Source of the DNA: Octopus vulgaris
Lineage: Eukaryota
NCBI GenBank assembly: GCA_951406725.2
Contig: OX597822.1
Location: forward strand, 78,244,001-78,308,000
DNA length: 64,000 nucleotides
Direction: 5' to 3'
A program made the translations under genes and the position numbers. This document shows, in pieces, positions 26,376-60,700 of this stretch. The notes beneath the pieces were generated by a model, which worked only from the letters and a program-made list of their open reading frames with translations, searched no databases and was not told the DNA's origin. Each line of letters begins with the position of its first letter. Position 1 is the stretch's first letter.

Positions 26376-26982
26376 TTGGGACTTACTGCAAGCCTATAAG
26401 CTATTGAATCATTATTATTTTGAGATCTGAAGAAAATCTGGAGCAGAGAGGACATGCTATTGATGAAGTAGCGAATGACAGATCGATTCACTAACTGAAA
26501 GATTAATTAAAAATTCAATTAGTTACTTGAAATATTGACTAATTGAGAAATAAATAATTAAGAAGTGAAATAGAGCCAGTGCATGTGTTTATTATTGGAA
26601 TAATAACCCTCCCGAGATACAACAAAATATATTTCAACACACGAGTTCACGTCACGGATCTTGCAGACCAAATACGAAAACAATAAAAAGTCGTTTAAGT
26701 CTTAAAGCCAAAATGTATCCCTAGAGGGAGATTTTGTGTACTAATCGTCTTGATAATCTCCGTTTACCGCATTTCTTTTTTTGTGGTGTCTTACTTCAGC
26801 CATACTGTTAATTCCATATCAGTTATATACTAGTTGTAACGCTCGAGGTCTAGTGGTTAGGGTGTTGCACTCACAATCGCTAGATTGTAGTTTCGATTCC
26901 CGGGCCGGGTGGTGCATTTTGTTCTTGATCACAACACTTAATTTCACATTTCAAGTTGTTTCTCTTCACTCAAGTGCAAATG

Positions 26983-27410
26983 GGTCGCCCCTGCGACGGT
27001 ACGAAGAAAGGCTGAGGACGCTCGACCTTTATTCTCTTGAAAAACACCGCCGCCGTGGTGATCTCATTCTCGCCCACAACATCATAAGCGGGAAGTGTAA
27101 CCTCTCGAAAGAGCTGTTCTTCACTCCTGCTCCGGAGCGTCGGCTGCGGGGTCATTCCGAAAAGCTCTACCTGCGACGATTTCATCTCAATCGAAGGAGA
27201 GGAGCTTTCTCCGTCCGGGTTGCGGATCCGTGGAACAAGCTGCCAGACGAGATGGTGAAGATGCCGACGACCGCTTTGTTCAAAGCCTCCCTGGACCTCA
27301 AGTGGCCTGAACTCTTTACATGAACACCACCCTGTACTTAACTCCATGTCCCCCTACATGGCCTTGCTATTTGCTTTTGAGCCAAATTAACTAACTAACT
27401 AACTAACTAA
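26983..27410 (+). mobile_element. 5'-truncated CR1/L2-group LINE 3' end inserted in a tRNA-SINE
   Basis: YEERLRTLDLYSLEKHRRRGDLI..LRGHSEKL..FSVRVADPWNKLP..FKASLD; stop at 27323; (AACT)n tail. Confidence 0.9.
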
Positions 27411-36920: not shown

Positions 36921-39900
36921 AACAAAGGAATATAGTTCTTTTGCTCTGTTTGTTGAGAAATGTGTTTAAGGATTTTTTTTTCTCTGATTGTAAAAGACAT
37001 AGCGTAACTAGTTGGATGGGAAAGCGATAGGGCGGTTCTCCTCGAGCGATGATTCTATGGGGCAGTTCTTTTGGGTCTGCAGTATAAGCCTGTGTAGGGG
37101 GTCTGGACACGATAAACTCAAGGGCTCTGTCGGTCGGTATACACTCTAACTTTGACACAACTTCATGTCCGTCATGTGTTTATAATGAAAGTGCAAAAAT
37201 AAAACAGTAAAAAAAAAAACAGATCTTAAAGAATTCTCCGATGTGAGGAGTATTCCAATAAGGATTTTTGGGGGAAATAATCTAAAAAAGGAACAGCTTT
37301 GGTTTCATGAGAAAGCAAGTAATAACCCAAGTCTTCGGGGCTCATATAAAACGTATTTTGCCACGGTGAGAAAACAACACCAACAACAACAGAGATGTTG
37401 GCGAGTTTCTCATTACAAACTGTGTAAGGTCATTGATTTTGCACTCCTATATAATTGATAAGTGGATGCTATATCGGGGTAACTAACAAAATGGCGAACG
37501 ACAGAATTGTTAGCACACCGGGCAAAATGCTTAACTGTATTTCATCCATTTTTACGTTCTGAGTTCAAATTCCGCCGAGGACAAACTTCCATCTTTTCGG
37601 GGTCGAAAAAATAAGTACCAGTGATGCACTGGGGTCGACGTAATCAACTATCCCTCCCCTCTGAAATTGCTGGCTTTGTGCTAAAATTCAAAACCAATAT
37701 GTGGAAGCATTTATATAATATTCCTTTCTACTATAGCAGAAGGCCTGAAATTTTGCAGGAGTAGGGGGGGGTAAGTTACTTGTTTTATTGGGCCTCGAAA
37801 GAATAAAAGCCAAAGTCTTTATTGGCGAAATTTGAACTCAGAACGTAAAGGCGGACGAAATGTCGCTAAGCATTTTACCCAGAATGCTAACGATTCTGCC
37901 AGCTCGCCACTTTAGCCTGTACTATAAGAATAATCTTTTATATGCAACAGGAGCAGTATTAGATTAAAATAGCCATCTGGGTATCAAACATAATGTAAAT
38001 ACGTCGTGGACGTTAAATTTACTGTCGAAAATAATGCATGTTATGGACGTGCTGCGTTTAAAAACACAATATACATATATCGGAGGCAGGCGAAAATCGT
38101 CCTAGCAGCAACTGGCGAGGGTGCCAAAAAAGTTCAACCTCTATGGATTTTGTCAATAATTGTTACCAATAGATTCCATCTTAGCATGTAGTTTATTGTG
38201 AATAAAAACTATTGACAATGCTTAAGGAGGCAGAAATGCATCAGGCATTTTCATCAAATGCTGCTAAGACGATTTTCATCTGTCTCTGATGATTATTGTA
38301 TCTTTAATCACTGCACGTCCATAAGAGATGTTATCTCAGGACGAATAGCGCAGTAAAATTGCCTTCAACGATGATTTGACATTGAATATAATAATATTTT
38401 ATTTATAGGTGCAGGCGGGGTTGTGTGGTAAGAAGTTTGCTTCCGAACAATATGGTTCCAGGTTCAGTCTCTCAGCGTGGTACCTTAGGCAAGAGTCTTC
38501 TACTATGACTTCGGGCTGACCAACCTTGTGATAGGATTTAGTAGACGGAAACTGAAAGAAACCCGTCGTATATATATGCATATGTGTGTGTATGTGTGTG
38601 TATATGTCATTGTGTCTGTGTTTGTCCCCCTCCACTGCTTGACAACCGGTGCTGGTGTGTTTATGTCCCCGTAACATAGCGGTTCGGCAAAAGAACCTGT
38701 TAGAATTAGTACCAGGCTTTGAAAAAATTAAGTACTGGGGTCGAATTCATTCCACTAAAAATTCTTCAGTGCGGTCAGAATGGCCGCAGTCTAAAAACTG
38801 AAACATGTAAAAGATATAAAAAAGGGTTAGACAGAATTTCTTGAAGAGATGCAGATAATGCAACGAAGCACTAAACAGGGGTTTTACAAAGGCGTGCGGA
38901 GTTGAAGGGACAAATTATTGAAAGACGGGGAAAAGAAAGAAAGTTGTTAATAAAAATCTCGATTCTAAGACCAGGTGGTGCATTGTGTTCTTAAACAAAA
39001 CACTTCATTCACGTTGTTCCAGTCTACATTGTTGTAAATGAGCCGGCAATGGGTGGGAAGTTAACTCTGCGACGGACCAGCGTCTTGTCCAGGGTGGAGA
39101 GTTGTGAGAATGAATTAAAAATTTATTTTGAAATAAATGCATTTACACGGAATAAATTATATATTAAATAAAGTATGACTCAGCACAGTAACTAAAAGAA
39201 GGTAACTATATAGAAATTGAATGTCCGCATAGGCGCAGGCACGGCATTGGTGTGGTAAGAAAGTTACTTCCCAACTTACAAGATTCTGAGTTCAGTTCCA
39301 CTGCGTGGCACCTTGGGAAAGTGCCTTCTGTCATAACCTCAGGCTAACCAAAACCTTGTGAGTGGATTTGGTAGACGGAAACTAAAAGCCCGTCGTGTGT
39401 GTGTGTGTGTGTGGTGTGCGTGCGTGTGTATGGTTGTGCAGTTAAGTATCTAGCTTTATAACCACGTGGTTTCGGGTTCAGTTCCATTGGACGGTACTTT
39501 GAGCAAGTGTTTTTTTTTTCACCATCACCACGAACCACCCAATGCTTTATGGCTGAATTTCGTAGACGGAAACTGTATGGAAGCCCGTCGTATAAATATG
39601 TGTGTGTGTATGTGTCGTTATGGTTCTCCCTCCACTGCTTGACAATCGATGTTAGTTTGTTTATCTGCCCGTGACATAGCAGTTCGGCGAAAGATATCGA
39701 TAGAATTGATACTAGACTTTTTTTTTTTAAATAAGAACTGGAGTCAATCTGTTCAACTAAACCCTTTACATTATATAGTGTATCCTGTTTTAGACGGTAG
39801 GGTGTGATTTGAGGGTGATTCGGCTGCTATTTCTGGCAGTTCAGAGGACTACGTAAAGGTTCCATTGTTTTGTATTCATTACTGAATTAATAAAAAAAAA

Positions 39901-40192
39901 TTGTCTCTGTTTAACCTCAGGTAAACTCTGACTGAGCAGATTTATAACCAAACATATTCCAACAGTGACCATCTCATCATGTATTTTTGGTATAGCATAT
40001 CTACAAGTACGTAATCCAATGTTCACTTCCGTTTTGAAGACCGTGGGTTCATTTTTGTGTGAGATTTGCAGCTATTTCTAGCAGTTCGATCGACCATGTA
40101 GAGACATCCTCATTGGCTATTCATGAAAATGGTAAAATAGAGTAATCTCCCTTGTCAGCCTCTTCTGCAATAATGAATGGATAATTCTAAAA

Positions 40193-40311
40193 ATGTCTGA
40201 AGTTGCAGAAGGAACTTGTTCCAATTCTAGCAACGATGCTTCTCAGAAACGGTCTGCTTTCGGTAATCGCCATTTAACAGATTCCAGTAACGTGTTCCAG
40301 CACAACGCTTG
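40193..40311 (+). CDS. METTL2: METTL2 alternative first coding exon 1a (cytosolic-type N-terminus [40 protein letters not shown])
   Basis: ATG in aaaATGt context; matches the recalled METTL2 motif KRxxFGxRxLxD..VFxHNAW; strong donor TG|GTGAGT, phase 2. Too short to be in the ORF track. Confidence 0.9.
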
Positions 40312-43300
40312 GTGAGTAGTAATGTCGTTGCTTTCCTTCTCTGTTCACAGTCTTCTGTTTAAGTATTGACAGGCAATATGGAGCTTCGATTCGATTCGAT
40401 TCCTCTCGCTCTTGGAATTCCTCGTCTCTTTAATGACAACGAATAGTATTTTCCCTCCCACCCTCATTTATCAGCACCAATATCCTCTTTCTTCTCCTCG
40501 TCAACGTCATCATCACTATTATTATCAACATAGTCGTCTTCGTGCTTATGTTATTATCATTACTACAATTATCATAATCGACCCACAACCAAAGCTTCAA
40601 CAAGATCATCACCACCACCACCACCGCCACTGTCAGCTGCATTAATTTACTAACGAGCCAACGTGGGAGCCCCTACATAGTCACTCGATCTGCTAAAAAT
40701 AGCAAAATCTCTCTCTTTCTCTCTCTCTCACACACACATACACACACACAAATTCTACCTCACTAAAAATTGCAGGACTCATTGAATAATGCCGTCCAAA
40801 GTACACTGCGTCTAGGAAAAAAATGAAAAAGAAATACGGGATAGCCACGGCTTAATACCTTCGATTAGAAATCTGTTGAGCTGATTGAACAACAATATTG
40901 ATCTGGTAACGCGTCAACGAGGAAATCTCAACGTAAATGTTCTACCTACTAAAGATAACAGCTAACCTCTTTCTAATCACAGCCTACTGTTACAAAAAAA
41001 AAAAAAAACACGTTGGACATAGAATCGTGTATATAGCTAAAGAAGCCAAGTTCATAACAGTAACACTTCTGATTATAGATAAATAATATCAATTCCAGCT
41101 GAACTAGGATGAAATGATCTTGCTAAAAATAAAACTACTTTATCTCAAAAATCTTCAGTAATTCTATTTATTTCATGAAATTGTTTATAACTCTAAAAAT
41201 ATCTTCACATTTATTCCGTCGGCGGAATTTTGTCACCCAGTATTCAGATCAACACACGTGCGTGAAAGGCACATTGTAACTGTTGTATTGATGGACGCAC
41301 TTTTTTTAAGAAACAAATAATGTCCCAAAAATTCACCCATAATCTTTAATGGACAAAAAACTTTTGTCCTGAATATGCACTGCTGAGATCGGTGTGCATC
41401 TGATATGCAGGTGCGTCTTTTTATACCGTAAAATACGGTAGTTGCTATTTTTGTTTAAGTGCAGATGAGTTCTGGTCTGGTAGACGTATAATCAAAGGCA
41501 TTCCTCTTGTGTTGTAACCATCCTGTCTTTTCCCTGAATACAGGGAACCCAGGATCATATTATGCAACGTGCCTTTTCTAAGACTAAAAATTTGAGGGAG
41601 ATTTGGCTGCTATCTCTAACAAGATGAGTGACCATGTAATGGCTTTGTCGTTGGCTCGGTTCGAGTTGAATGCATTAAACGACAACTACCGAAAATAGTT
41701 ATTTGACTGCAATCAGAATTTCATTATACATTCTTAATATTACGGCTCGGTTGGACTGGAAGGATCGATTGAGTGACTGATAACATCGCTTGCACTATTT
41801 AATTGTGTATCTTATCGTTCTGAGTTCAAATCTTGCCGGAATCAACTTTACTTTTCATCCTTCCGGAATCAGTAAAATTCAGCACCAGTCAAGTTCTGGG
41901 ATTGGTATAATCAATTGCACCATCCCCGATAGTTGTGACCTTGCACCTATGTTTAAAAAATCAATATTAATGATAAACATACATGAAAAATTTAATCGTA
42001 AAAAGCTTGTGAGAATCTTAATAAACTGAACGTCGCTTTTGTAAATACAGGATTTTTTAGTCCCGGGAGATCGACCCTGGTCGAGTAGACTTGCAATCAC
42101 AGTCAGTCCTGCTGTAACATCCATTATTTCTTTCAGACAGTGTATCTACGACCAAAGGCCGATGAGTTGCGTGCGCACTCACACACACACACAAAAGAAG
42201 GCAAAAGAGAAAACCTAGGGTTTTCTAAATATCTTAGTATTTTCCAATTCACTGCAAAACATCGAGGTACACGTGCAAATCGTAAATGGTAAAAGATCAT
42301 CATTTAATGTCTGCTTTCCATGCTGACATGGGTTGGACGATTTGACATGGTTCAACAAGCTATAAAACTCACTTCATATATATATATATATATATTATCT
42401 TTTTACTTATTTCAGTCATTAGACTGCAGCCATGCTGGGGCAACGCCTTGAAGAATTTTTTAGTAGAATGAATTGACCCCAGTATTCATTCTGTCATTCT
42501 TTTTTTTTTTACCAAACTGCTAAGTCACAGGGACTATGTATCATCATCGTCATCATCATCATCGTTTAACGTCCGTTTTCCATGGTAGTATGGGTTGGAC
42601 GGTATATAATATAATTTAATAGTAGGGTAAGCTGGTTTATGGGGTTACCCTGGTTTTCTTGCTCATGGAATGGGAAAAGCCTCCATATTTTAAAGAGCTC
42701 TCAGGCCAGCAGTATTTTGGGTCTGAAGATATGCCTTAAGGCTAAACCACCTGTGAGCAAGAAACCCAGGTTAACCCCATAAACCAGCCTACCCCACTAT
42801 ATTAACTGCTCTACATCTTAGAATGTGCTTTTCCTCCCAATTTATGTATTTCTACAAATGATCCTAATATATATATATAGACACACACACACACAACGGG
42901 CTTCTTTCAGTTTCCCCTCCACCAAATCCCCTCACAAGGCTTTGGTCTGCCCTGAACTATAGTAAAAGACACTTGCCCAAGATGCTGTGCTGTTGGACTA
43001 ACCCCCTACTCAATATTATGATAATTATTTAACACTTTTTATACCAACCTTCTGGACACATCATTGGTTCAGTGCTACAAGCTTTCTTGTCTAAATTTAA
43101 CCGTTTAGTATTTAAACCAGCCACATGTGGTCCAAATATTCAACCTCTTTTATGCTCAGAGCAACGAAATCTGGCCTCTCACACCTACCCTACTATGTCA
43201 TTCTAAGAATTAACAGATTCAGCATTGAAATCTTGAAGTTTTGAGATAATGCATGATTAATCCAAAACAAAGAGTGAATAAATAAGCTTTACAGTTAACA

Positions 43301-43644
43301 GAAAGAAATCAGAACATTGCTTTATGGGTTTAACCTTCCATCATAATTTCTGTTCCAGTCTGAATAATCCTTTTTACTATGGGCACAAGGCCTGAATTTC
43401 TAATTTTTTATTTGGCAGTGGTGGGGCAGGGAAGTCTTGTTGATATCGTTAGCACCAATATGCAGTTGATACTTTATTTTATCAGCCTGGAAAGAACGAA
43501 AGACAAAGTCAGCCTCTGCAAAATTGAACTGAGAACGTAAATATGGACAAAAATGCCACAAACTAAGAATTTCACTTGGCTTGCTAACACTTCTGCCAGT
43601 TCACTTTTCATCATTTTCAGAATTAATTGAAGCAAAAACAGTTT

Positions 43645-43683
<39 letters not shown>

Positions 43684-45742
43684 GTTGTCGTTGTTTAACA
43701 TCCGCTTTCCATGCTGGCATGGGTTGGACAGTTTGACTGAGGGCTGGAGAGCCAGCATCTGCACCAGGCTCCAATCTGATCTAGCAATGTTTCTACAGCT
43801 AGATGCCCTTCCTAACACCAACCAATTCGAGAGTGTAGTGGGTGCTTTTTTTCTACAGGAATATTCTATGAAAAGGATTAATATTAGTTTTAGAACTATG
43901 ACTTTTCAGTTTTAGTTTTCGAATATTCTACCTGTTTAATCTTGATCTTACTGCCTCTAAACTGTTTTATACTGATTTTAGAATATTATAACTTTATGGT
44001 GCAGGCATGGCTGTGTGGTTGAGCTGCTTGCTCCTCAACCACATGGTTCTTGATTCAGTCCCACTGTGTAGCACCTTGGCCAGGTGTCTTCTACTACAGA
44101 TCCAGGCTGACCAAAGCCATGTGAGTGGATTTGATAGACAGAAACAGTGTAGAAGTCCTTTGTTTGTGTGTGTATGTGTATCCTTGTCTTGATATTACAT
44201 AATTGTTATAAACAAGCATCACTGTCACACATGAGATGTTGTTCGCTTCCAGTATTCCATGAAAAATATATTTGCTGAGGAAATATCATCTTGCTTGGAA
44301 ACAGGCGAGAGTTGGGAACAGGAAAAGCGTCCAGCTGTAGAAAATCCACCTCATGAAAAAGTGGACATTAAAATGATGATGATACAAAGTTTTTAGATTA
44401 TTATAATTGTTTGATATTGGTTTCAGAACATTTATTTTCTCTGCAGCCCATGATATGGACCAAATCAGCCATTCCCTATTGACACTGTAACTGTTGCTAT
44501 TGGGGAAGCTGTATGTCGGGTAAAACTGTCTACAGTCACAAACAGGGGCCTCCTCATCTATCTTAAGCAGACTTCCCAAATAGGATTAGCATTGTTTGAC
44601 AATAGGATCCCTTCATTCTATACTTCCATTTTAATTCTAACAACAAAAGTCTTTTGTCTGTATATTTCAGAAGAAATGGCATCTCGTACTGTCTCTGGAG
44701 TTACACTCAGCCTACTGAATCGACACATGATGTCCTTTCAGTATTGTATATACCGCTCTATCCCACAAATTTTGCATTGCTCATCACGCTCTACATCTCA
44801 GCAACGTCCCAGGGGTGGGGCTAGGCCTCTCACTGACCCTAATAAAGTATTTAGCCACAATAATTGGTAAGGGTGTTTCCACTCTTTCTTTATTCTCTCT
44901 GTTTTTCCATCCCTAATTTTATTTATAGCTTATCAGATGAAGGAGAGCAGTACCCACAACACCTTGAAGGGCCTCCAATTCTGCTACCAGTTCATAGATT
45001 GCTGCTGAAGGAAGCAGCACCTGTCCAGACACTCAGTTATCCCCTGACCAGGTTCAAATGCTTCTAACAGCCTAGTCTCTGATAAAATCATCCAAGGGAC
45101 AGACAATGGTGTTAAACTGACATTTTACATCTACCATCCAACAACATACATAAAACACAGTTTATCTGATGGGCTTACACACAATTTTCATTTACCAAAT
45201 TCCATTTACGAGGCTTTGGTCACCTCCAGGCTATGGTAGAAGATCCTTGCCAAGGTGTCAAACAGTGGGATCAAACATAAAGTATAAAAAGACAAAAAGA
45301 AATAGTTGTTTCTCTACAAGACACCTGTTCCTGCCCTTCTGTTATACTTTAACCTCTTATCACCAGGCTTAAAGCCCCAATTTCCTCAATACACTGTACC
45401 CAGCTCCCTTGAGAGATCTTGCTTTGTCAGTTACTCGGTGACCTCACTAGTAATCGTGCTACATGCAAAGCACCCAATACATTCTGTAAAATGGTTGGCG
45501 TGAGGAAGGACATCCAGCTGTAGAAACCAGGCCAAAGCAGACACTGGTGCTGGGCACCGTCCGCTTGCTTATCAGCTCCTGTTGAACCATCTAATCCATG
45601 CCAGCATGGGAAACTGACATTAAATGGTGATGATGATGATGATGATAGCAATGAGGTACTCCTTTCTCTTCTTTAGTCTTCCACTTTTTACTAACCCATC
45701 ATCATTTTCCCTTCTTTATATAGTGTGTGTGTGTGTTTCTCT

Positions 45743-45810
<68 letters not shown>

Positions 45811-48800
45811 TTTGCTCAAGTTACACAGTTGTCCCAATGTTGCCTTTGCAATCATAGTAAATGCATCAAACTAATGATTAACCCATTTGTAACCTATAAC
45901 CAATAACTCTATTGTCTACATAATGCAATATAAAATAAGCAGATAAAACTGTGGAGTTCAGGGCTGGCCAACCTGAGGCCCAAGGGCCGCATGTGGCCCA
46001 TAGCTTTTTATGATACTTTCTTGAAATGGGTTTTTTTAAAGAAAGATTTTTTAAATTTTTCTCAAAAATTAAAGATTGTAATGAAAAGTGTTAATAAAGC
46101 AATAGCCTACAATTTTATAATTTTCTACGAAAAGTATGAAAAATTCTTGATTCTGTAATTTGATTATTTGTGGCACTCTGTCAGTTACGATGATGAGGGT
46201 TCCAGTTGATCTGATCAATAGAACAGCCTGCTCGTGAAATTAACGTGCAAATGGCTGAGCACTCCACAGGCACATGTACCCTTAACATAGTTCTCGGGGA
46301 GATTCAGCATGACACAGAGTGTGACAAGGCTGACCCTTTGAGATACAGGTACAACAGAAACAAAGAAAGAGTAAGAGAAAACTGTGGTGAAAGAGTACAG
46401 CAGGATTCACCACCACCCCCTACCGGAGCCTTGTAGAGCTTTAGGTGTTTTGCTCAATAAACACTCACAACATCCAGTCTGGTAATCGAAACCACGATCT
46501 TATAACTGTGACTCTGCTGCCCTAACCACTGGGCTATTGCACCTTCACTTTTTGACTATTAGTGCATATTTTTCTTCTGATTTATACTCATAAATATAAA
46601 GACCCCACCCCCACCCGTCTTCAGTCATGAATGACCATGGGATTACACCTGGAAAGCTCCCCTCTGAGGCACAAGTCCAGACAAGGTTGTTCATGAAAGA
46701 CCACCAGTCTCCCCTCTCTACCCCACCAATGTTATTCAAGGGAAAGGCAAAGGGGCTGATACAGCTTGGCACCAGTGACATCATATCTCATCTCTACAGC
46801 TGAGTGAACTGGAGCAATATGAAATAAAGTGTCTTGCTCAAGAATACAACACACAGCCTGGTCAAGGAATCGAACTCACTATTTCATGATTGTAAGCCCA
46901 GTGCTCTAACCCCTGAGCCACACACCTTCACATTTATACTCATATAAACCATTTAATTTCAGGAACTATTTTTGGTATCATGCGATGATGTTTAGCCTAG
47001 TGATTAGTTATGATCGCAAGATCATGGTTTCAATTCCCAGACCAGGCAATGTGTTGTGTTCTTGAGTAAAACACATCTTACATTGGTCCAGTCCACTCAG
47101 CTGTAAATGAGGAACCCTGTGATGGGATAACATTCCATTCAGGTGAGGGGAGTTGTGATTTCAATAACTTACATACCATAGAAACAGGGTAACCAGCCTT
47201 ATAAGTCCTAGGACTTGAGAGAGTGATGTGCAGGGGACTTACTTTTTAGTATCACATATTGTGTTTGATTCCACAGACTCTAGTTGATATAGAGCAGCTC
47301 AGGAACAAAACCATGATGCATGAGACTAAACCACAGCATGTGGAGTTAAGCTATAATGAATGGTACTAAACCATAGAACATGGAGCAGAACTATAGTTTT
47401 AAGGTGCTTAAACTACAATTTTATGAAGCTTAAACTTCAATGCATGGTGCTAAGTCACAGCACATGCAGCTAAACAAATAGCTGAATCTAAGCAACAGTT
47501 TATGGAATGATATGGAGCATAGCCATGATATTTAGAGCTAAGGTGAAGGCATGGCTGTGTGGTCAAGAAACTTACTTCCCAGCTATATGGTCTTGGGTTC
47601 AGTTCCACTGCACAGCACCTTGAGCAAGTGTTTTCTACTACAGCCCAAGCCTTGTAAGTGGATTTGGTAACCAGAAACAGAAAGAAGCCTGTTGTGTGTG
47701 TGTGTGCATATCTTTCTCCTGACATTCCATGTTAGTTATAAACAAGCATCACAGTTGTACAGGTGATGCTGTTTGCTTCCAGTTTCCATAAAAAGAAAAA
47801 TGTCTGGCCTCAGGAATGTTACCTTATTTGGAAACAGGTGAGGGTTGCTGACAAGAAAGATATCCAGCCATAGAAAATCTACCTCAACAAATTCTGTCTG
47901 ATTCATGCAAGCATGGGAAAGTGGACATTAAGATGATGGTGATGACAATGATTGCCTTGCAGATGTCCAGAATGGATATTGGTTGCTTCATTCTCACTTA
48001 CAAAGGTGGAGGGTCACAAGTGAAAGCCTAATGGCCTTCCCCTTTGAATAATTTATAAAATATATAAATAAAATTTCACCTAATTGTTGTTAAAAAATAT
48101 TAGTTGATTCTGGAATTTTGTATGTCATTGGTGAAGACTGGTGTCTTTTTATATTTTTTTTTTGTTATGGCTTGTATAAAAGAGAATTTATTATATATAT
48201 ATTTTTTCTTTTCACTCTTCTATCCAGGGACAATGTAGTCTGGGATGCATCACAAGAATCTGAAGCTCGACGTATTACCGAAGAACAGGCTGCTGACCTT
48301 GTGTCATTTGAGAAACAAGGTTAGAGAAGAATATCCAATCAAATTAAACTGCTCACCCTCTTCACCACCACCACCACCTTTACCACTACTACCTCTTCTA
48401 GCACTTTCAAAACCCTCTCTACTACTACCACTACCGTCACTATCACTACCACCACCATTACTACTACTACCTTTGTTGGTCATTTGATGATCCTTGTCAC
48501 CATTCATCTCTATCCTTTCATCTTCTATCCATTACTTGTTTCAGTCATTTGACTGTGGCCATACTGGAGCACCCCCTTGAAGCACTTTTAGTCAAATCAA
48601 TTGACACCAGTACTTTTTTTTTTTTTAATTTAAACCTGGTACTTATGCTATCAGTCTCTTTTTGCCAAACCACTAAGTTACAGGGACATAAACACACTAA
48701 CACTGATGTCAAATTATGTTGGGAGACAAACACACCTCCACATGCACACACAAACATATATATATATACACAATGGGCTTCTTTCAGTTTCCATCTACCA

Positions 48801-51800
48801 AATCCACTCACAGAACTTTGTTCTGTGTGAAGTTATAGTAGAATACAATTCCATTAAAAAAATTTTTTTTTAAGGAGCACTCTTATTTCTACCCTAATCA
48901 TATGGGAAAGTTACTTATGATAGGGTTGTATCTATACTTTACATATTTATGGTTTAGATCTCATCTCTTTCAACCCCTAACACCTCAAAAGCCCTTCACA
49001 TCATAAGGGGTGCTTTTGATTGACTCTGCGTGTCGTGGTCTGAAATAGCAACCAAGTTTTGGTTTTTGGTTGGCACTGTTTTACTTCTCTCTCACCATTT
49101 GGTTTCATATTCAGTCTCACTGCCTAGCACCTTGGGCAAGTGTCTTCTTCTATAGCCTCAGGCCGACCAAATCCTTATGAGTGGGTTTGGTAGACGGAAA
49201 CTGAAAGTAACCCATTGTATTTATATATATATGTATGTGTGTCTGTGTTTGTCCCCCACAATCACTTGACAACTGATGTTGGTGTGTTTACATGCCCCGT
49301 AACTTAGCAGTTCAGCCAAAGAGACCAATAGAATAAGTACTAGGCTTACAAAGAATAAGTCCTAGGGTCGATTTGTTCGACCAAAGGCAGTGCTCCAGCA
49401 TGGCTGCTGTCAAATGACTGAAACAAACAAAAGAATAAAAAGAATGTTTTCATGTTTTAAAATTTTCTTTTCTGTTTTTTTAATCAGTTGAATATGAAGA
49501 CAAGGCCTATGAGTTCTGGGACCATTTTTACCAGTTACACCTGGATAAATTCTTCAAAGATCGGCACTGGCTCTTCACAGAGTTTCCAGAGTTAGCTCCA
49601 GAAGCGAAACTCGAACCACCAAATTCCCATCCTTCAAACAGTCAATCAGAATCAGAATCTGAACCAGAACCAGAACCAGAATCCAAGTCCTGTTCCGGTT
49701 CTGAGCAGTGTGATCTGGTGCCAGAAGAGCAGCAACAGCCAGAGCAACAACAATGTGAAGGCCCCAGCGAGCAGGAACAAGTTGAGAATGAACATGAAAC
49801 ATCACAAGCTTCCACTAATACCAATACTTCCATCATACCTCAAGTGACTGTGAGTGAAGAAGAGGTGAATGACGATCCTGACAAAATCTACAGATTCTTC
49901 GAAGTAATGGAGTTTTACTGTCTTTCTTCATCCTTTCTCCTTTTCCTTTTTTTTTTTGTGTGTGTTTCTCATAGTTGCCATCTTTGCCACTCACTGTATC
50001 CATCCCTACATACCTCTAACCTTTATCTCTATCACCGTACATCTCTTTCTCAATTGAGATAAGAAAAAAGGGTTTAAAGTCATCTCTAATCGAAGCCTTC
50101 TCTCCATGACTATCCTGTCATAATTTAAGTCAATGTATCTAGATTTACATTATTCAGTGTGTCTTTCCTCTTATTTTAAGACAGCAAGATGTAGTTTGAG
50201 AAGAATTTGGCTGCTCCTTCTATCAGTTTGAAAGACCAATATGAAGGCTACCTCACTAGACTGCAAAAAGTGTTTTATTGTTATAATTGGAAGAATTGGT
50301 AGAGGCGATGTTTAGTTGTGAATCTTTTCATTCCAAGTTCAATTCTCACTAGATTCAATGTTGCCTTCCATCCATCTGGGTTCAATAAAAGAAGATACCT
50401 GGGAAGTACTGGGGCTGATGGTGACAATTAACACACTTCCCTTCAAAATTGCTGGCCTTCGACTAAATTAAAAGCAGTTTCCAAACCACATGGTTCTGGG
50501 TTCAGTCCCACTGCATGGCACCTTGGGCAAGTGTTTTCTACTATAGCCTCAGGCTAACCAAAGCCTTGTGAGTGGATTTGGTTGACAGAAACTGAATGAA
50601 GCCTGTCGTGTGTGTGTGTATTTGTACCCCACTACTGCTTGACAACCAATGTTGGTGTGTTTATGACCCCGTAACTTAGCAGTTTGGCAAAAAGGACCGA
50701 CAGTTTAAGTATCAGGCTTAAAGAGAAAAAAATAAGTCCTGGGGTCAAGTCATTCGACTAAAATTCTTCAAGGCAGTGCTCCAGCATGGCCACAGTCTAA
50801 TGACTGAAATAAGTAAATGAATAGAATAATAAAAGAATGGTTTATTAATTATTGTGAGATGTAAGATGGCAATGCTGGCAGAACCCTTAGCATGCTGGAC
50901 GAAATGCTTAGCAGCATTTCTTCTGTCTGTGTTCTAAGTTCAAATTCAGGTGAGGTCAGCTCTTCCTTTTATCCTTCGAGGCCAATAAATACCATTCAAG
51001 TACTGGGGTTGATGTAATCAACTTTCCCCCACCCTCCTCAAAATCTGCTGGCCCTGAGCTAAAACTTAAATCTATTATTATTGTCAAATGTAAGAAGGCA
51101 AGCAGACAGAATTGATATACTCAGGTAATAATTATTTTCTCTAATGAGTTTGTATATGTTTGTGTAGGTGTGTGTGATTGTAATACTTATTTTTAACAAA
51201 ACAGGTAGAATATGGATGGTAAATCAAATTAATACACTTGTCAATGTTATCTAGTGGTTGTCTCTTGAGATGTGACATCGATCATCGTTTGTTACTGAAA
51301 GAATGCTGGTTTACACATGCAAACATTCATATACTTCCCTTGTACACACACATACACACATAGAGTTGAAACACTGTTTGATTTTTCTTTTCAACGTTGA
51401 ATGTTCACCATCCCACTTCCATTGTACACACACACTCACACCGCCCTTTTACATACACACACATATATGCTCACACAAAGTTGAAATGCTGTTTGATTTT
51501 TTTTTCACCATAGAATTTCCATCGTCCCACTACCAGTTTGCCATCACTCCTTCCTTTCTCATTCATATATTGTGACAGAGAAAAACACAAGAGCATTATT
51601 ATAGTAGATTATTTTATATTTTCTTAGTGTGTTTTTTAGTAGCTTCTCTCCTTACTCTGCTATCAAATGATCCCTGTTTTTTTTCCCTTTTTGTGTCAGG
51701 TTGGCTGTGGTGCAGGCAACACAGTTTTTCCAGTCTTAAAAACCAACAAGTAAGTTTCATAATTGATCCTTCAAGTTTTATTTGTTTTATTTTCCTATCC

Positions 51801-54470
51801 ATGTATCACCTCTCTACAGCAGGACACCTGTTTCTGTCCCCTTTTCCTACTTTAGCCTCTCTACATGTAGCACATAGCCATGCCCCTTAATATTGCACCT
51901 CAACACTGCAAAGTGGTTTCATGAGTTACTTGGTGATGCCATTTGTGCTGATAACACAACAAAAAAAAAAGCATCCAGTACACTCTGTAAAGTGGTTGGT
52001 ATTAGGAAGGGCATCAAGCTGTAGAAACCATGCCAAAACAGACAATTGAAGCTGGGTGCAGCTCTCCTATTTGCCAGCCCCTGCCAAATTCCCCAATCTA
52101 TGCCAGTATGGAAAATGAATTTTAAGTGGCAGCGGAGAATTTAAAAGGCATTGGTAAAATAACTAACTTTTATTTTCATTGGTTGGTTGGTTAGTTGGTT
52201 GGTGTTAGGAAGGGTATTAATCTGTAGAAACCCTGCTAAAACAGACATATGCCCTTCACACAGTCCTCTGGCTCATCAGCTCCTGTTCAACCATCCAACC
52301 AATGCCAGCATGGAAAAGGGGACATTAAATAGTGATACGGATAAGCATACACACACATATGTGGTGGTGGGGTTGTGTCTCCCTTTTTTGACATCACGTG
52401 ATAGTTATAACTCAGTGTCATTGTTATACAAGCAATATCATTCATTTCTGATATTATTCTGTAAAAATACATCTGTCAGTGCTTGAAAACAGGTATAGGT
52501 TGGTGACAGAAAGAGCATCCATCTGGAGAAAATCTGTCTCAAATAAATTCCATCCAACACATGCAAGTATGGAAAAGTGTAAGTTCAAATTTGAAATGAC
52601 ATTATATATAATAATAGAACATTTTGATCATTGTAGGTTAACTCAGTCAAAGTCAACCTGTGGTTAAACAACACAATCTTTAAGCCCTGATCACGGGATA
52701 TCTCACAGAAGCTAAATCTATGACACACCTTGATTTACCATCTTAATTCATTCCTGAAGACCATTTGTCTCCCAAAACTATTTTTCCAACAGGAAATTCA
52801 AGAGAGGCTACATTGAATTGAAGCAGGGATGTGCACTGAATGGAAACTCAACAGAAACTGACACCCTCTTGTTGATAATCCCAGCTCGTCGCTACCCTGT
52901 GTATTCTTTATTCAAGACATCATTTGTCACACAAGACATTTTTATGTTTGAAACATTGTCTCTAAACCAATTTCTTCATGATGAGAGGCATTCGTAAACC
53001 AAGGTTCCATTGAATATCTTGGGACATAAAAGATTCGCCTCTGTCTGATCGTCTAAGTTTGTGTGTGTGTGTATGCATGCACACGTTACCTCTATTATTT
53101 AACCCTCTTCATACCAACCCAGCTGAAACCACTTCTGGCTCTGTAGTACAAACATCTTGTTCGCATAAGTTTTGAATTAAAATCTTCCACCAAATCTTAG
53201 TCACAATTTATGTTCCTAACACTAGCTTAATGATAACTAAGTTATTTTACTAAATTCTTTGTTATATTTTAAATTAATTGAAAGAAACACAGAGCATCTC
53301 AAAATAAATACGGTAACGAAAGGGTTAAAGCTAATTTTATTAATTTCTGTTAATTTCAGTAACCCTAACCTTGTGATATACTGCTGTGACTTTTCTTCCA
53401 AAGCTATTGATCTTGTCAAGGTAAGACTATACCATTCGAATATTCTTATATACTGTGCTACACAATACTGTGTCACACCACAATTCAATACTTGATTTAT
53501 GCTACAACTCAGTACACAATAAATTTATTTACACAGCAATAATTTATTTAGGAATTATCTCCCATGTAACATTTGTAAATTTTCTCCCTTTGTAATGCCT
53601 TCCTATTTATCCCTGCCTATCATATGATTGCTAACTTTAGACATTTATTTTTGCCATCATAACTAACTAACTATATATAGTGTTTATGGCTAATGGAAAG
53701 AAAATATAGATTTACAATTAACATAACATATTATTATTATATTATATAGCTACAAATATAATCCTACAAATTGTTTCAATTCAGACCAAATAATGAATTA
53801 ATAAAAATTTCGTGTTTATGGCTAAGAATCTCAGTAGGGAAATATTTGACAAAAATTACATATGAGGATTGTTAGATCCTAGAATATATATATCATCATG
53901 TTGATCCACTTTTAATCCACTTTTCTATGTTTGTAAGGGTCAGATGGAATTTGTTTACTGCAGGAAGGGTATCATAGAAAAGCTGCCTCCACTAATTCTA
54001 TCTGACCTATGCAAGCTTAAAAAAGTGGATGATAAATGGTGACAGTGATGATATAAGGATAAAGATCCTTCTCTAGTCATATAGACTCATGGGGCCAGTT
54101 TCCCAGTTTCTGACATATACATTCTCCACCTGGAAGGGACACCAGTCCATCGCAGGATTGCTCATTTTTGTGAAGGGAAGTGTTTTGTTCAAGAACACAA
54201 TGCATTGCTTAGTTAAGGAATTGAAACCACAATCTTACAATCAGGAGTCCAGCACCCTAACCACTAAGCCATGCACCTCCACATAGACACACAAAAATTC
54301 TATTATGAAAGCAAGGCATGTGTCAGTGTGGGTGGTAAGCTCTCTGAACACCAGCTGCAAGAAACAAGCACTGTTGCCACATTTGTGCAAAACGATGTAG
54401 GTATGAAGAGCCATATCCATCCCACTTTAAGAGAACAATCCAGCTGTGGCAGATAGATAGATGATAGACA

Positions 54471-54735: not shown

Positions 54736-57700
54736 TTGTGTGTCTGTATTTGTCCCCCCACCATCACCTGACAACTGATGTTGGTGTGTTTACGTCCCCA
54801 TAACTTAGCGGTTTGACAAGAGAGACCAATAGAATAAGTACTAGATTTACAAAGAATAAGTCCTGGGGTTGATTTCTTTGACTAAAGGCAGTGCTCCAGC
54901 ATGACTGCAGTTAAATGACTGAAACAAGTAAAAGTATAAAAGACTAGATAAACAGATAGATAGATAGCATATATACACATGCTCTTAAATGATTGAACCA
55001 TCAATAAAATAATTTCCATCACTTCCTACTTCAACAGGAACATCCAGAATTTGAACCTTCACGCTGCTACCCATTTGTATGTGACATCACCAATGAGTAT
55101 TCTCCAGTACCGTTTGAAGAAAACAGCCTCGATATTATTATTATGATATTTGTCCTTAATGCTATTAGTCCAAACAAGTAAGAATCACTTTTGTCTTCAC
55201 TCAACAACCGTCTTTACTTCTATTTCACTTTGCACTCATCATAAAATGTTGTTCTATTTCTTCCTACCTACTTTCATACATGAAAGTATGTAGGAAGTAC
55301 CAACTCCACACAGCAGTGCCTGTGCCTAGGCTGTGGATCCAAAGCGTTTTATGTGTTTGATTTTCTATACAGGTGATGATGATGATGATGATTTTTATTA
55401 TTATTATTATTATTACACTAAAGTTGGAACAATAAAGATATTACTCTGTTACTGTTTGCCCTTGTGATAAAATCCCCCAGCACACTCTGTTAATGTGGTT
55501 GGTGTTAAGAAGAGCATCTAGCCATAGAAACAATGCCACAATGGACAGTTGGATTCTGGAGAGCTCCCTGCTAGCCAGTTCCATGTCAAACCATCCAACC
55601 TATGACAACATGAAAAGGGGATGTTAAACAATGATGATGACAACGACAACGCTGGCTTCTTCTTCCTCCTCCTCCTACTCCTCCAGCTCTGATGCAACAG
55701 AGATATTCCTGCCATGACCACCTTGTCTTTTATTCACACAGAGTGCTTTTAGCACTACATCAACTAATGTGTCTTTTCCTCTTCTTTATGACATGAAAAT
55801 GTAATTTGAAATTCCTCTGCTATTTCGTGTGACAGAGGTTCTCCTCATTGAAGTATATTATATATCATCATCATCATCGTCATCATTTAATGTCCCATGT
55901 TCCATGCCAGCAGAAGATGGACTGTTTGACTGGATCCTATGGGCCCAAGGCCTGCATCATGCTCCAGTGTCTGCTTTGGTATGGTTTCAACAGTTGGTTA
56001 CCCTTCCTAACGCCTATCACTTTACAGCACATGCTGGGTGCTTTTTTCGTGCCACCATGCAACTTGCAGGACTACTAACTCCAAGGGGGGAATGGGGTCA
56101 GTTTTATGCTAGGAGATGAGAGGTTAACCATTTCATTATCATATTTATGTTAAAATACACTACTTCTTCTTTTAGCTAATTTGAAAATAATGGAGCATTT
56201 AGTAAAATAACTTTTTAAGCTGGTGCTTGGTACATAAATTATCATGAAATATTGGTGAACAACTTTGATTTCAACCACTTTAAACTAATTAACATCATAG
56301 AAACAGGAGTGATCTCAGGTAAATGTTGGTGCAAAAAGAGTTAAAGCAAGGAGTGGTTGGCATTAGGAAGGGCATCCAGCTGTAGAAACCAAGCCAAATT
56401 AGACTGAACCTGGTGCTGCTCCCCAGCTTACCAGTTCCAGTCGAACCATCTAACCCATGCCAACATGGAAAACAGATGTTAAATGATGATGATGAATGCC
56501 ATGGTATATTGAATATTCCATCTCCTCTCTTTTACCTCAATGCTGTCTTTACATTTACTCTACTTCTCTCTCTCTCTTTCTCCCGACAGGATGCAACAAA
56601 CTGTGAACAGATTAAGTAGTTACTTGAAACCAGGAGGTCTTTTACTGTTCAGAGATTACGGTCGCTATGACATGGCCCAGCTACGATTCAAGAAAGGTAA
56701 GCAGGATTTGCTTCAGGGAGTCCTGACAATGCAGTTTGTTGATCTGGGATTGAAAGTGATTGATTTCTGAACCACAAGGTCATAATTTCAGCCTATTTCT
56801 ACATCCATTGTGTTTGCTGTCAGGTATCTTGTGGCTATGTTGTTAAGAAGTTTACTTCCAAACCATATGGTTCCGTGTTCAAACTCTCTGCATGGCACCT
56901 TGGGCATAATGTGTCTTCAAACATAGCTTTTGGTGGAGGAAATTTGGTCAACAGGAATTATGCAGAAACCCTCATGTATCTATGTGTGTGTGTGTGTGTG
57001 TGTATAGGGTAACCGCCTTTGGTCATGAATGACCATGGGATTGCACCCAGAAAGTTCCTCTCTGAGGCACAAGTCAGGGCAAAGTTGGTTATGGAAGGCC
57101 GTGCATACCAGCTTCTCCCCTCCACGCCACTGATATTATCCAAGGGAAAGTCAAAGGCCAATACAACTTCACACCAGTAATGTTGCAACTCATTTCTACA
57201 GATGAGAGATCTAGAAATAAAATGTCTTGCTCAGGAACACAACACACAGCCCAGTTCAGGAATTGAACTCACGACCTCATATAATCGTAAGCTTGACACT
57301 TTAACCACTGAGCCATGCGCCTTCACATATATATATAGAGTGGCGAATACTCATTATAAATATCACCACCAGTGGCCTAGCATGTATAAAAAGTCAATAG
57401 ACAACATATTCGTATTTCAAAATAGAAAATTACCCTTTAACAGGTAGGCTGCTATTTCTAGCATGTAAAAATTACCTGTTAAAGGGTAATTTTCTATTTT
57501 GAAATACGTATATAGTTATATAGATATATATATAATGTGTGTCTTTTGTCTTTTACTTGTTTCAGCCATTGAATTGTGCCCATGCTGGAGCACTGCCTCA
57601 AAGAGTTCTCTGGAACAAAACCCCACTACTATTTTCTCTTTATAAGTCTGGTACTTATTCTATTGGACAATTTTGCTGAACCACTAAGTAAAAGATTGTA

Positions 57701-60700
57701 AACAAACCAACACTGATTTTCAAGCAGTGAGGAGAACAAACAAAGGCACAAAGAGACACACCCACACACACAGCAGTGTGTATATACAGTGTATAACAGT
57801 ATATATACAGTGGAGGGAACCAGTGGAAGAGGAAGACCCAGGAAGATATGGGATGGGTGGTGAAGCACATCCTTCAAATGTTGAGCCTTACAAAGGCAAT
57901 GACAAGCAACCGGGACCTTTAAAGATATGCTGTACTTGAGAAGACTCGACAAACCAAGTGAGATCGCCCATTTAAGAGCACCCTTCAATCATCGGGCAAT
58001 ATGCTTTGCTTGTGAAGACTTGTTGAACTGAGTGAAATCGTAGTTATGGCCAATGCCAGTGCTACTTGACTGCCACCTGTGCTAGTGGCACATAAAAAGC
58101 ACCATTCAAGCATGGCCAATGCCAGTGCCACCTGACTGGCACGTAAAAAGCACCATTCGAGTGTGGCCGATGCCAATACCACCTGACTGACTCCCGTGCC
58201 TGTGGTACAAAAAAGCACCCACCACACTCTCAGAGTGGTTGGTGTTAGGAAGGGCAACTAACTGTAGAAACCTTGCCAAATCAGATTGGAACCTGGTGCA
58301 GCCTCCTGGCTTGCCAGTCCTTAGTCAAACTGTCCAATCCATGCCAGCATGGAAAGCGGATGTTAAACGATGATAATGATGGCAACAGTTTTCCACCCAG
58401 TTTCCATCTATCAAATTCACTCGTAGACCATTGGTTGGCCCAGGGCTATATAGTAAAAGACAGCTGCCCAAGGTGCAGGGGGCTGAACCTGAAACCACAG
58501 GGTTGTAAAATGAGCTTCTTAACCACAACCAACCCTGTGCCTCCACATAACCAAAACCTTAAATTTCTTATGATTATCAGTTATGTTCTAAGTTGAAACT
58601 CCTTTGCATTTCACTTTACATTTAATGTTCCTCTTAATCTTCCCGTAAAAATGTGTCTACTTGTGTCCCCAGTGTATGAAACGCCTTGTCATTCTTCTCA
58701 ACATTTTTTCATTACCACACACAGGTAGATGCTTGTCAGAAAACTTCTATGTCCGCCAAGATGGTACTCGAGTATACTTCTTTACCCAAGGTAAGTTCAC
58801 TTTCAGTAACATGAACACACACACATGCATAGACATGTATTACCAGCCTCTCATTGAAACAGCAGGTAAATCTCTTTTAACTCTTTAGCATTTAAACTGG
58901 TCTTATCCGGCCCGAATACTCTACCTCTTTTTGGTTTTCAAACCACCCAAATTCAGCCTTTCACCCTGCCCTACAATTCTGTTAAAGATAAAGATATACT
59001 TTGGGCAAGTTCTTCTACTATAGCCTTGGTCCGACCAAAGCTTTGTGAGTGGATTTGGTAAACAGAAACAGAAAGAAGCCCATCATATATATATGTATGT
59101 ATATATATATGTGTGTGTCTACATATATATGTCTATATATATACATATATATATACATATGTATGTATATATATGTATATATATATATATATCATCATCA
59201 TCATCATCATCGTTTAACGTCCGTTCTCCATGCTAGCATATATATATACATTTATGTGTTTGTGTCTGTTTATACCGACAGAATAAAATACTAAGCTTAC
59301 AAAGAACAAGTCCTGGGGTCAATTTCATTGACTAAAATCCTTTAAGGTGGTGCTCCAGCATGGCCATAGCCAAATGACTGAAACATGTAAAAGAATGAAA
59401 GAATATCATTGAAACTTCATAGCTACAAGATAACTGCATGATTAATTAGAAAACAATGTGAATAAATAATCATTACATTGGCCAGAGTAAGGGTTCAGTC
59501 ACATCATTCCATCATCATCAGCTGTATTCTGTGCTGGCATGCGTTGGACAATTTGACAGGGTCCAACCAGTCAGAAGACGCCCTCCCCATCACCACCACC
59601 ACTGCATGTTTTAGCATGGTTTCTATGACTGAATGCCCTTCCTGACTATTAACAAAAAAAGAGTAGGATATTTTGGGTTTGTGGTTAAGAAGCTTGTTTC
59701 GCTACCATGTGACTTTGGGTTCAGTCCTATTGCATGGCACCTTGGACAGTGTGTACATGTGTGTGCACATGTGTGTGAATGTTTAGATCAGTGGTTCTCA
59801 GCTGCAGCTTCCAGGGCCACATGTGGGCCTCAAGCATCCTTCCAGCAGGCCCTCAATGGTCTTCTCATAATAAATACGATAAATTTTACTTTACTTGACT
59901 TGCGTTTTATTTATTCCTTTTTTTTTTGTGCACACTCCACCCCCAAACTCCAGGTTTCGAATTTGGCTCAGATATTAAAAAGATTGTGAACCATTGACAA
60001 ATATCTGCTAGTTCTGTGCCTTTGAAGATGAATAGAATAAGAGATCCTTTAGCATGAGAATCGGTTAATTCCAGGAAGGGAACTGGCTGCTTGTTTCCAT
60101 GTGCTTCACATTGTCACCGATTTAGTATAAATGTCTCCTTGGTTCTGTTCTTTGGCTTGCCAGCTCTTGTCTAACCATCCATTCTCTACCAGATGGAAAA
60201 ACGGACGTTAAATGATGATGATGATGATGATTACCAAAACATGTCATCCTCATTTTAAAGGTGTATGGGAGCTTATTAAGGGAGATATAGGGGCAATTCA
60301 ATAATAGGCTGAGTTACCAAGTCACAATAGGATAGCAGGAAGGGGCCAGTTGTATAGACCAGGTCAGTCCCTGATGTTTCTAATGAATAGACCTCTGATC
60401 AAAGTAACACAGCTATTACCATCTCATCATACTTTCATACATAATAAGGGCTGCCTTATCAAATTATATGTATCCTTTTTAAGAAGAACATAGTAAAGTA
60501 TGCTGTTTCGAGCAAGTGAAACTGTCAGGTACAGGCACTCTCGTCGCCACGCAATTATTTCCCTTAGCACCATAAGACAGAAAAAAATAAAATGATATAT
60601 TTAAATGTTGGTTGATTTTTTTCAGTTTTCCTTTCAGTAGGGAAAATGGTTGATTGAAATGTGCCAACATTATTACGATTATATAACTGGTATTTATTTA

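Follow-up and report, generated by a model that had tools for sequence, protein, structure and literature searches.

A gene for a predicted tRNA methyltransferase of the METTL2/8 family in Octopus vulgaris, located in a 64,000-nucleotide (nt) stretch of the forward strand of contig OX597822.1 (assembly GCA_951406725.2, positions 78,244,001 to 78,308,000; hereafter the window), possesses two versions of its first coding block, exons 1a and 1b, in front of one shared core. Contigs assembled from two runs of one study showed exon 1b spliced in behind 1a, as a cassette and not as an alternative first exon; one mRNA thus contains both, in different frames, and a stop codon arises where they meet. 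Splicing of 1a straight to exon 2 would yield the predicted cytosolic enzyme, which would form 3-methylcytidine at position 32 (m3C32) of tRNAs, and inclusion of 1b would stop the 1a frame at the junction, with a restart at the 1b ATG giving the likely mitochondrial form, predicted to methylate mitochondrial tRNA-Thr (mt-tRNA-Thr). We consider it probable that this is a single gene with two forms, of which the 1b form is likely mitochondrial and acts on mt-tRNA-Thr, and that such a gene was the ancestor that jawed vertebrates split into METTL2 and METTL8.

Exon 1b is a cassette exon behind exon 1a

Contigs assembled from seven runs, which were presumed to be RNA although none is recorded as such, were aligned to the window. 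The junction of 1a with exon 2 (40311 to 48228) was present in contigs of runs X2 (record 10) and X3 (record 17), and that of 1b with exon 2 (44866 to 48228) in contigs of runs X3 and X9, so that both junctions sought on the basis of an earlier note on this DNA were seen. That note, made from the letters alone, had described 1a and 1b as mutually alternative first exons, a view that these data do not bear out: in runs X3 and X9 the letters 5' of position 44671 are those of the 3' end of exon 1a, and there was no cover upstream of 44660 in either run. Because 1a letters precede it, a CAG acceptor stands at its start (44668 to 44670, five bases 5' of its ATG), and its surroundings are depleted of CpG, 1b is a 196-nt cassette exon. 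The ratio of observed to expected CpG (o/e) is about 0.8 to 1.0 around 1a, 0.15 to 0.29 around 1b, and 0.15 to 0.36 from position 42501 onward. The 1b acceptor is weaker than those of exons 2 to 4 (pyrimidine share, 0.64 versus 0.86 to 0.91).

The junction of 1a and 1b reads TG/A, which forms TGA and turns exon 1a into a 39-codon upstream frame. The 1b ATG lies 4 bases after this stop in a different frame and in a good start context, with G at -3 and +4. One more short frame lies inside 1a (at 40236; 13 codons), and the 150 bases 5' of the 1a ATG contain five short ATG frames; a search for an upstream ATG in frame with octopus 1a showed that stops block this possibility. Translation from the 1b ATG would most likely depend on avoiding the 1a ATG, either by leaky scanning of ribosomes past it or by transcripts that start within 1a; the alternative route would be re-initiation, 4 bases beyond the stop. 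Ribosome access to the 1b ATG, and with it translation of 1b, is inferred.

In run X3, contig depth was about 167 near 40070, with no cover at 40125 to 40183; 20 loose letters precede 40186, a point at which the window lacks an AG. This pattern may reflect a candidate exon of the 5' untranslated region, an indel, or an opposite-strand transcript. The cryptic exon listed in Table 1 is probably splicing noise.

Table 1. Features of the METTL2/8 locus in the window
Feature	Position	Strand	Evidence or remark
CpG-rich region surrounding exon 1a, likely the sole promoter region	38501..42500	.	CpG o/e 0.78-1.01; promoter role inferred
Exon 1a, coding part (119 nt): short acidic leader, motif block ending HNA-W (METTL2 type)	40193..40311	+	Identical to P0004 N-terminus
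Pyrimidine tract and CAG acceptor of exon 1b	44645..44670	+	RNA contigs begin aligning at 44670
Cassette exon 1b (196 nt): ATG at 44676 after 5 untranslated bases, predicted presequence, HNN-W block	44671..44866	+	RNA contigs, RefSeq X1
Cryptic exon joined to 1a, with in-frame stops and low depth	44929..45212	+	One contig, depth 2.6, run X3
Exon 2 (92 nt), common to both forms	48228..48319	+	RNA contigs; human METTL8 exon 5 equal in size
Exon 3 (416 nt): FFKDR motif and acidic low-complexity insertion	49488..49903	+	
Exon 4 (50 nt): SAM-binding GxGxG motif	51700..51749	+	
Exon 5 (61 nt): CCDF	53360..53420	+	
Exon 6 (140 nt)	55038..55177	+	
Exon 7 (107 nt): FRDYG	56590..56696	+	
Exon 8 (66 nt): DGTR	58725..58790	+	
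Exon 9, coding part, up to the stop codon	61289..61437	+	

One intact gene with two splice forms

The window contains an intact METTL2/8 gene consisting of exon 1a and eight core exons, with GT-AG at every join. The translation of 1a plus core is identical to P0004, a protein named as O. vulgaris, and that of 1b plus core differs from P0001 (O. sinensis isoform X1) at 4 of 423 residues. The exon limits in the earlier note were confirmed, with the 1b coding part at 44676 to 44866 (191 nt): both exons end TG/GT in phase 2, and each gives W-D-N when joined to exon 2. Its proposal that one gene makes a cytosolic-type and a presequence-type N-terminus by exon duplication is likewise supported. The motif pattern had two matches in the six frames of the window and none in 30 base shuffles, and the 3' ends of the two exons form a gapless alignment in which 34 of 66 positions are identical. 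For O. sinensis and O. bimaculoides, RefSeq lists isoforms X1 (1b; 423 amino acids) and X2 (1a; 399 amino acids) without explanation, under the name METTL2. Exon 1b is conserved in O. bimaculoides, where 5 of 64 residues differ from the window and the frame is intact.

The octopus protein has a class I S-adenosylmethionine (SAM)-binding domain with GxGxG and the catalytic Asp, Asp, and Thr (D260, D339, and T367), scores above the cut-off for Pfam Methyltransf_12, and carries the FFKDR motif together with an N-terminal R..N.WD block. These features point to a METTL2/METTL8/Trm140-type methyltransferase predicted to make m3C32 on tRNA. METTL6 and Trm141 are the closest solved structures (E 1e-56), and METTL6 differs from the octopus protein in lacking the N-terminal block. 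The octopus gene is not METTL6, which has its own locus and a short N-terminus without the block: the 2.8-Gb genome holds one second related locus, on contig C15, and it matches METTL6 (27 of 27 candidates scored). No separate METTL8 gene was found in this genome search, METTL6 being the sole other relative.

Other searches gave little. Rfam had no match in the window, NCBIfam returned bacterial methylases only, all below cut-off, an Atlas search with 1b gave no usable match, and a region-limited homolog search returned two proteins and thus no broader survey of b exons.

Exon 1b encodes a predicted presequence and a second copy of a folded block

As the earlier note had described, exon 1b encodes 7 Arg and no acidic residue before D54, and exon 1a encodes acidic residues at E3, E6, and D15, to which D30 can be added. 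The 42 residues that precede the motif in octopus 1b include 4 Arg/Lys and no acidic residue (net charge, +4), and their helical hydrophobic moment, by a heuristic of our own, is 0.70, versus 0.30. The net charge of the b leader exceeds that of the a leader in 14 of 14 pairs, although these come from related species and are not independent. In a structure model of the 1b form, residues 7 to 45 are disordered and residues 51 to 130 are folded, with a predicted local distance difference test score of 83 to 97. Residues 1 to about 45 of the 1b form are accordingly a predicted mitochondrial presequence.

The duplicated exon encodes R50, N62, and W64, residues that do not vary among the aligned proteins (76 of 76). 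Because three invariant residues of the folded domain thus lie in the exon, a mitochondrial form would require a copy of the block for itself, and the whole exon would have been copied, rather than a presequence merely being placed behind the original exon.

We also noted a-type N-termini with a basic, acid-poor, in-frame extension, mostly before a second Met, in frogs (P0046, P0097, P0100, P0105, and P0118) and, in similar form, in invertebrates (P0346, P0077, P0044, P0030, P0034, P0101, and P0358); such extensions may be a second route to mitochondrial targeting. The BLAST table from 2016 in the PMC4986895 supplement, an old annotation, lists no METTL8 for Xenopus laevis, and frogs may have lost METTL8.

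Paired isoforms are annotated in molluscs, decapods, amphioxus, and lampreys

Protein clusters were picked mostly by the word "isoform" in names and do not constitute a census. Among the isoform pairs compared, 19 of 23 diverge exactly at W/D and are identical from there to the C-terminus; the 19 represent 17 species, a cross-species Lampetra pair, and a second amphioxus annotation. Such pairs were present in the molluscs Octopus (two species), Pecten, Argopecten, Mizuhopecten, Mytilus (four), Haliotis (two), and Gigantopelta, the decapods Scylla and Penaeus, the amphioxus Branchiostoma lanceolatum, and the lampreys Petromyzon and Lethenteron. The four misses were an oyster, with an extension upstream, Limulus, for which there was no a partner, and two additional isoforms that differ at other places. 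Blocks of b type without a partner at hand were seen in Plodia, Limulus, Eriocheir, and B. belcheri. Judging from these proteins, the two-exon arrangement is not an octopus peculiarity.

For Drosophila melanogaster, supplement 3 of PMC4986895 gives scores for metl isoforms A and B of 253 and 247 against Trm140 and of 154 and 154 against Trm141, a pattern expected if the isoforms differ in the N-terminal block.

Relationship to vertebrate METTL2 and METTL8

The lamprey isoforms X1 and X2 share the same 323-residue core. The X1 block ends APLGSR..HNMW, like shark and bowfin METTL8, and the X2 block ends RPRFG..HNAW, as in METTL2; NMW occurs in 13 of 13 members of two METTL8 clusters. The lamprey b block and the METTL8 blocks group together (support, 0.96), and we are confident that the lamprey b exon is homologous to the METTL8 exon. 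Among METTL2-type matches of jawed vertebrates, all cluster representatives, the a block is present in 52 of 52 and a b-type block in none. In the core tree, METTL2, METTL8, and the lamprey gene form one clade (support, 0.996), with invertebrate genes outside it and lamprey nearer METTL8 (support, 0.907); the octopus core, which lies outside this clade, does not group with METTL8 to the exclusion of METTL2. The octopus gene is a pro-ortholog of both METTL2 and METTL8.

Human METTL8 has a comparable exon structure. Its exon 4, as described in PMC9023283, comprises 155 nt with 12 untranslated bases, ATG, presequence, and motif, ends in phase 2, and is skipped in Iso4, the Iso1 and Iso4 products differing by exactly 155 bp. 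According to the same source, the first 50 residues of human METTL8 target green fluorescent protein to mitochondria, and Iso1 is described as mitochondrial and Iso3/Iso4 as nucleolar (PMC9023283, PMC8752778, PMC8980813). The octopus 1b exon is likewise an internal, skippable phase-2 exon with a short untranslated lead, ATG, predicted presequence, and motif, followed by a 92-nt exon. The seven exons 3' of the presequence exon measure 92/371/50/64/140/107/66 nt in human METTL8 and 92/416/50/61/140/107/66 nt in octopus, so that six of seven are equal or within 3 nt, and by hand count the catalytic residues D230, D309, and T337 of human METTL8 correspond to octopus D260, D339, and T367. Exon 1 of human METTL8 closes with an ATG frame in phase 2, which in Iso3 is joined to the 92-nt exon and is possibly a remnant of exon a. 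The octopus gene differs from human METTL8 in that skipping of the human exon gives a form without the motif block, whereas skipping in octopus gives a complete METTL2-type enzyme from 1a; further differences are the position of the octopus core outside the METTL8 clade and an mt-tRNA-Ser(UCN) without C32.

The lamprey pairs and the exon structure of human METTL8 suggest that METTL2 and METTL8 likely arose by dividing the two exons of one gene, and that the octopus gene probably shows the state before the split, one of two possibilities raised in the earlier note. The METTL2-TLK2 and METTL8-TLK1 pairs are presumably paralogous; one METTL2 protein (P0068) filed under TLK2 is the only hint of this.

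Alternative explanations for exon 1b and its history

Several observations weigh against the reading that the octopus gene is a two-form, pre-split gene. The 1b junctions were seen in two of seven runs (X3 and X9), both from one study, in presumed-RNA contigs with two alleles matching O. sinensis; no 1b contig was present in runs X1, X2, X4, X5, and X20, where contigs show presence, not absence. Contig depth in run X3, a rough figure, was 28 for 1b versus 232 for the 1a-exon 2 junction, and an upstream frame of 39 codons that ends 4 bases before an ATG does not favor re-initiation and may provoke decay of the transcript. Outside Octopus the evidence consists of predicted proteins, in which exon order is not visible, and no b isoform was present in the clusters examined for Montipora, Dreissena, oyster, Holothuria, and Thrips. 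Topology tests, from which P0175 and P0226 were left out, leave the lamprey gene with METTL8, with METTL2, or outside both. Finally, a tree with two origins of the b exon, one in protostomes and one in chordates, costs 4.5 log-likelihood (lnL) units and was not rejected in an approximately unbiased (AU) test (p-AU 0.40), and the likeness of protostome b to chordate b blocks is inconsistent (z from -1.95 to +2.85, with crustacean blocks negative).

The low depth of 1b, its absence from five of seven runs, and a junction TGA far upstream of later junctions would all be expected if 1b were mainly a poison exon that stops the 1a frame, with nonsense-mediated decay adjusting the amount of enzyme and little protein produced from 1b. 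An open frame would be superfluous in such an exon, however, whereas in the 17 species the b exons retain phase 2, the motif, an ATG, and a leader that is basic and poor in acidic residues, and the homologous human exon is translated and imported; we therefore regard this explanation as very unlikely. There is an equally slim chance that 1b has a promoter of its own and truly serves as an alternative first exon, the 1a-1b junction being a minor by-product. Start sites are not visible in contigs, few tissues were sampled, and Mytilus X1 and X2, in which three residues differ close to where the b leader begins, hint at another upstream exon in that genus; nevertheless, the lack of cover upstream of 44660 and the preceding 1a letters in both runs, the acceptor 5 nt before the ATG, and the CpG-depleted surroundings argue against it. 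It is very likely that the 1b protein is made and is mitochondrial.

A more substantial rival, which we still consider unlikely, is that of separate histories with the same function: the presequence exon copy would have arisen at least twice, in protostomes (NNW, including octopus) and in chordates (NSW/NMW, leading to METTL8), making the octopus gene a convergent analogue and leaving amphioxus and lamprey alone to show the pre-split state. It draws on the low cost of the two-origin tree, the mixed similarity test, the lack of a b exon among the echinoderm, hemichordate, and cnidarian proteins at hand, and the presequence-like extensions on a-type exons in several lineages, which imply that targeting is gained easily. 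Against it, the unconstrained exon tree separates all b blocks from all a blocks, in 8 of 9 cases chordate b blocks are more like protostome b blocks than a null drawn from 150 other blocks would predict (z 1.4 to 2.6), the residue before W is non-Ala in 19 of 19 chosen b blocks and Ala in 138 of 150 others, Pro replaces the Gln of the a type in 13 of 19, and octopus and human share the internal-cassette layout. Keeping all b blocks together costs 0.02 log units relative to the best exon tree, and an exon duplication confined to molluscs was rejected (p-AU 0.037). The AU test of the exon used 24 columns and 30 sequences and excluded all outgroups, seven redundant rows, and the b blocks of Plodia and Limulus; in a separate tree of the blocks those of Plodia and Limulus, which lack an a partner, group with a-type blocks.

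On balance, a single bilaterian origin of the b exon appears likely. A fuller scenario, which we favor by a modest degree, is that a duplicated, motif-bearing cassette exon, present since the protostome-deuterostome ancestor, makes an upstream frame of the first exon and gives rise to a mitochondrial enzyme, that lampreys keep both exons, that genome duplication in vertebrates left METTL2 and METTL8 as the two halves, that the nucleolar human Iso3/Iso4 are relics of the old skipped form, and that lineages losing the exon (oysters, some echinoderms, and perhaps frogs after METTL8 loss) remade targeting via an in-frame upstream start.

Predicted mitochondrial substrate

Contig C227 (15,651 bases) is the octopus mitogenome. 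Read from sequence only, the anticodon loop of octopus mt-tRNA-Thr is C32-U33-UGU-A37-A38, and human METTL8 is described as requiring this motif (C32, U34, G35, and A37; PMC8752778). The octopus mt-tRNA-Ser(UGA), that is, Ser(UCN), has U32 and for this reason cannot carry m3C32; the earlier note had listed it among the established substrates of METTL8. The mt-tRNA-Ser(GCU) has C32 but also C35, and a C35 tRNA was not methylated by human METTL8 in the same source. Of the mt-tRNAs for Thr and Ser(UCN), the former is the only predicted substrate in octopus. The COX1 match on C227 is split into three pieces, and 37 further COX1-like matches lie on nuclear contigs.

Known systems and significance

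Vertebrate METTL2A/B and invertebrate Mettl2 are cytosolic enzymes that make m3C32 on tRNA-Thr/Arg. The octopus gene resembles them in its a-type block, FFKDR motif, insertion, and class I SAM domain, and differs from METTL2A/B in having a b-type block as well, which none of the 52 representatives mentioned above has. tRNA enzymes whose dual targeting depends on alternative 5' exons or start codons form a known class, as does the partition of splice forms between gene duplicates. As in these classes, one gene serves two compartments and later duplicates each retain one form; unlike in them, the duplicated octopus exon holds essential folded residues, lies downstream as a cassette, and creates a junction stop that turns 1a into an upstream frame.

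METTL8 has been stated to have arisen, apparently, in vertebrates (PMC8980813) or to be found only in Chordata (PMC8662637); two homologs are given for invertebrates and three for vertebrates (PMC4986895), and the N-terminal domain has been called unassigned (PMC8373065). Such a vertebrate- or chordate-only view implies that invertebrate mitochondria have no dedicated m3C32 writer. We found no account of a two-exon gene or of invertebrate mitochondrial m3C32 in the literature covered, which mostly excludes subscription journals. Our results suggest that the mitochondrial METTL8-type exon likely predates the METTL8 gene and that a mitochondrial m3C32 enzyme may not be a vertebrate invention. 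The isoform pairs would trace METTL8 to a specific origin, lead one to expect m3C32 in the mt-tRNA-Thr of many bilaterians, and could account for the unusual isoforms of human METTL8. They also form a natural swap system, with two N-terminal blocks on one identical core, for the role of the block in substrate choice, and would present a case of a junction-made stop controlling compartment. Should Drosophila metl A and B be the same pair, for which there is a hint only, these ideas would be testable in a genetic model.

Other observations in the window and genome

Positions 1 to 39000 of the window are rich in microsatellites and repeats, and the long coding frames there are simple repeats together with a short element-like frame at 26757 to 27323. 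The last coding exon of METTL6 occurs twice with the same translation, 3.9 kb apart (L018:2798-2926 and L018:6739-6867), as either a tandem copy or an assembly artefact.

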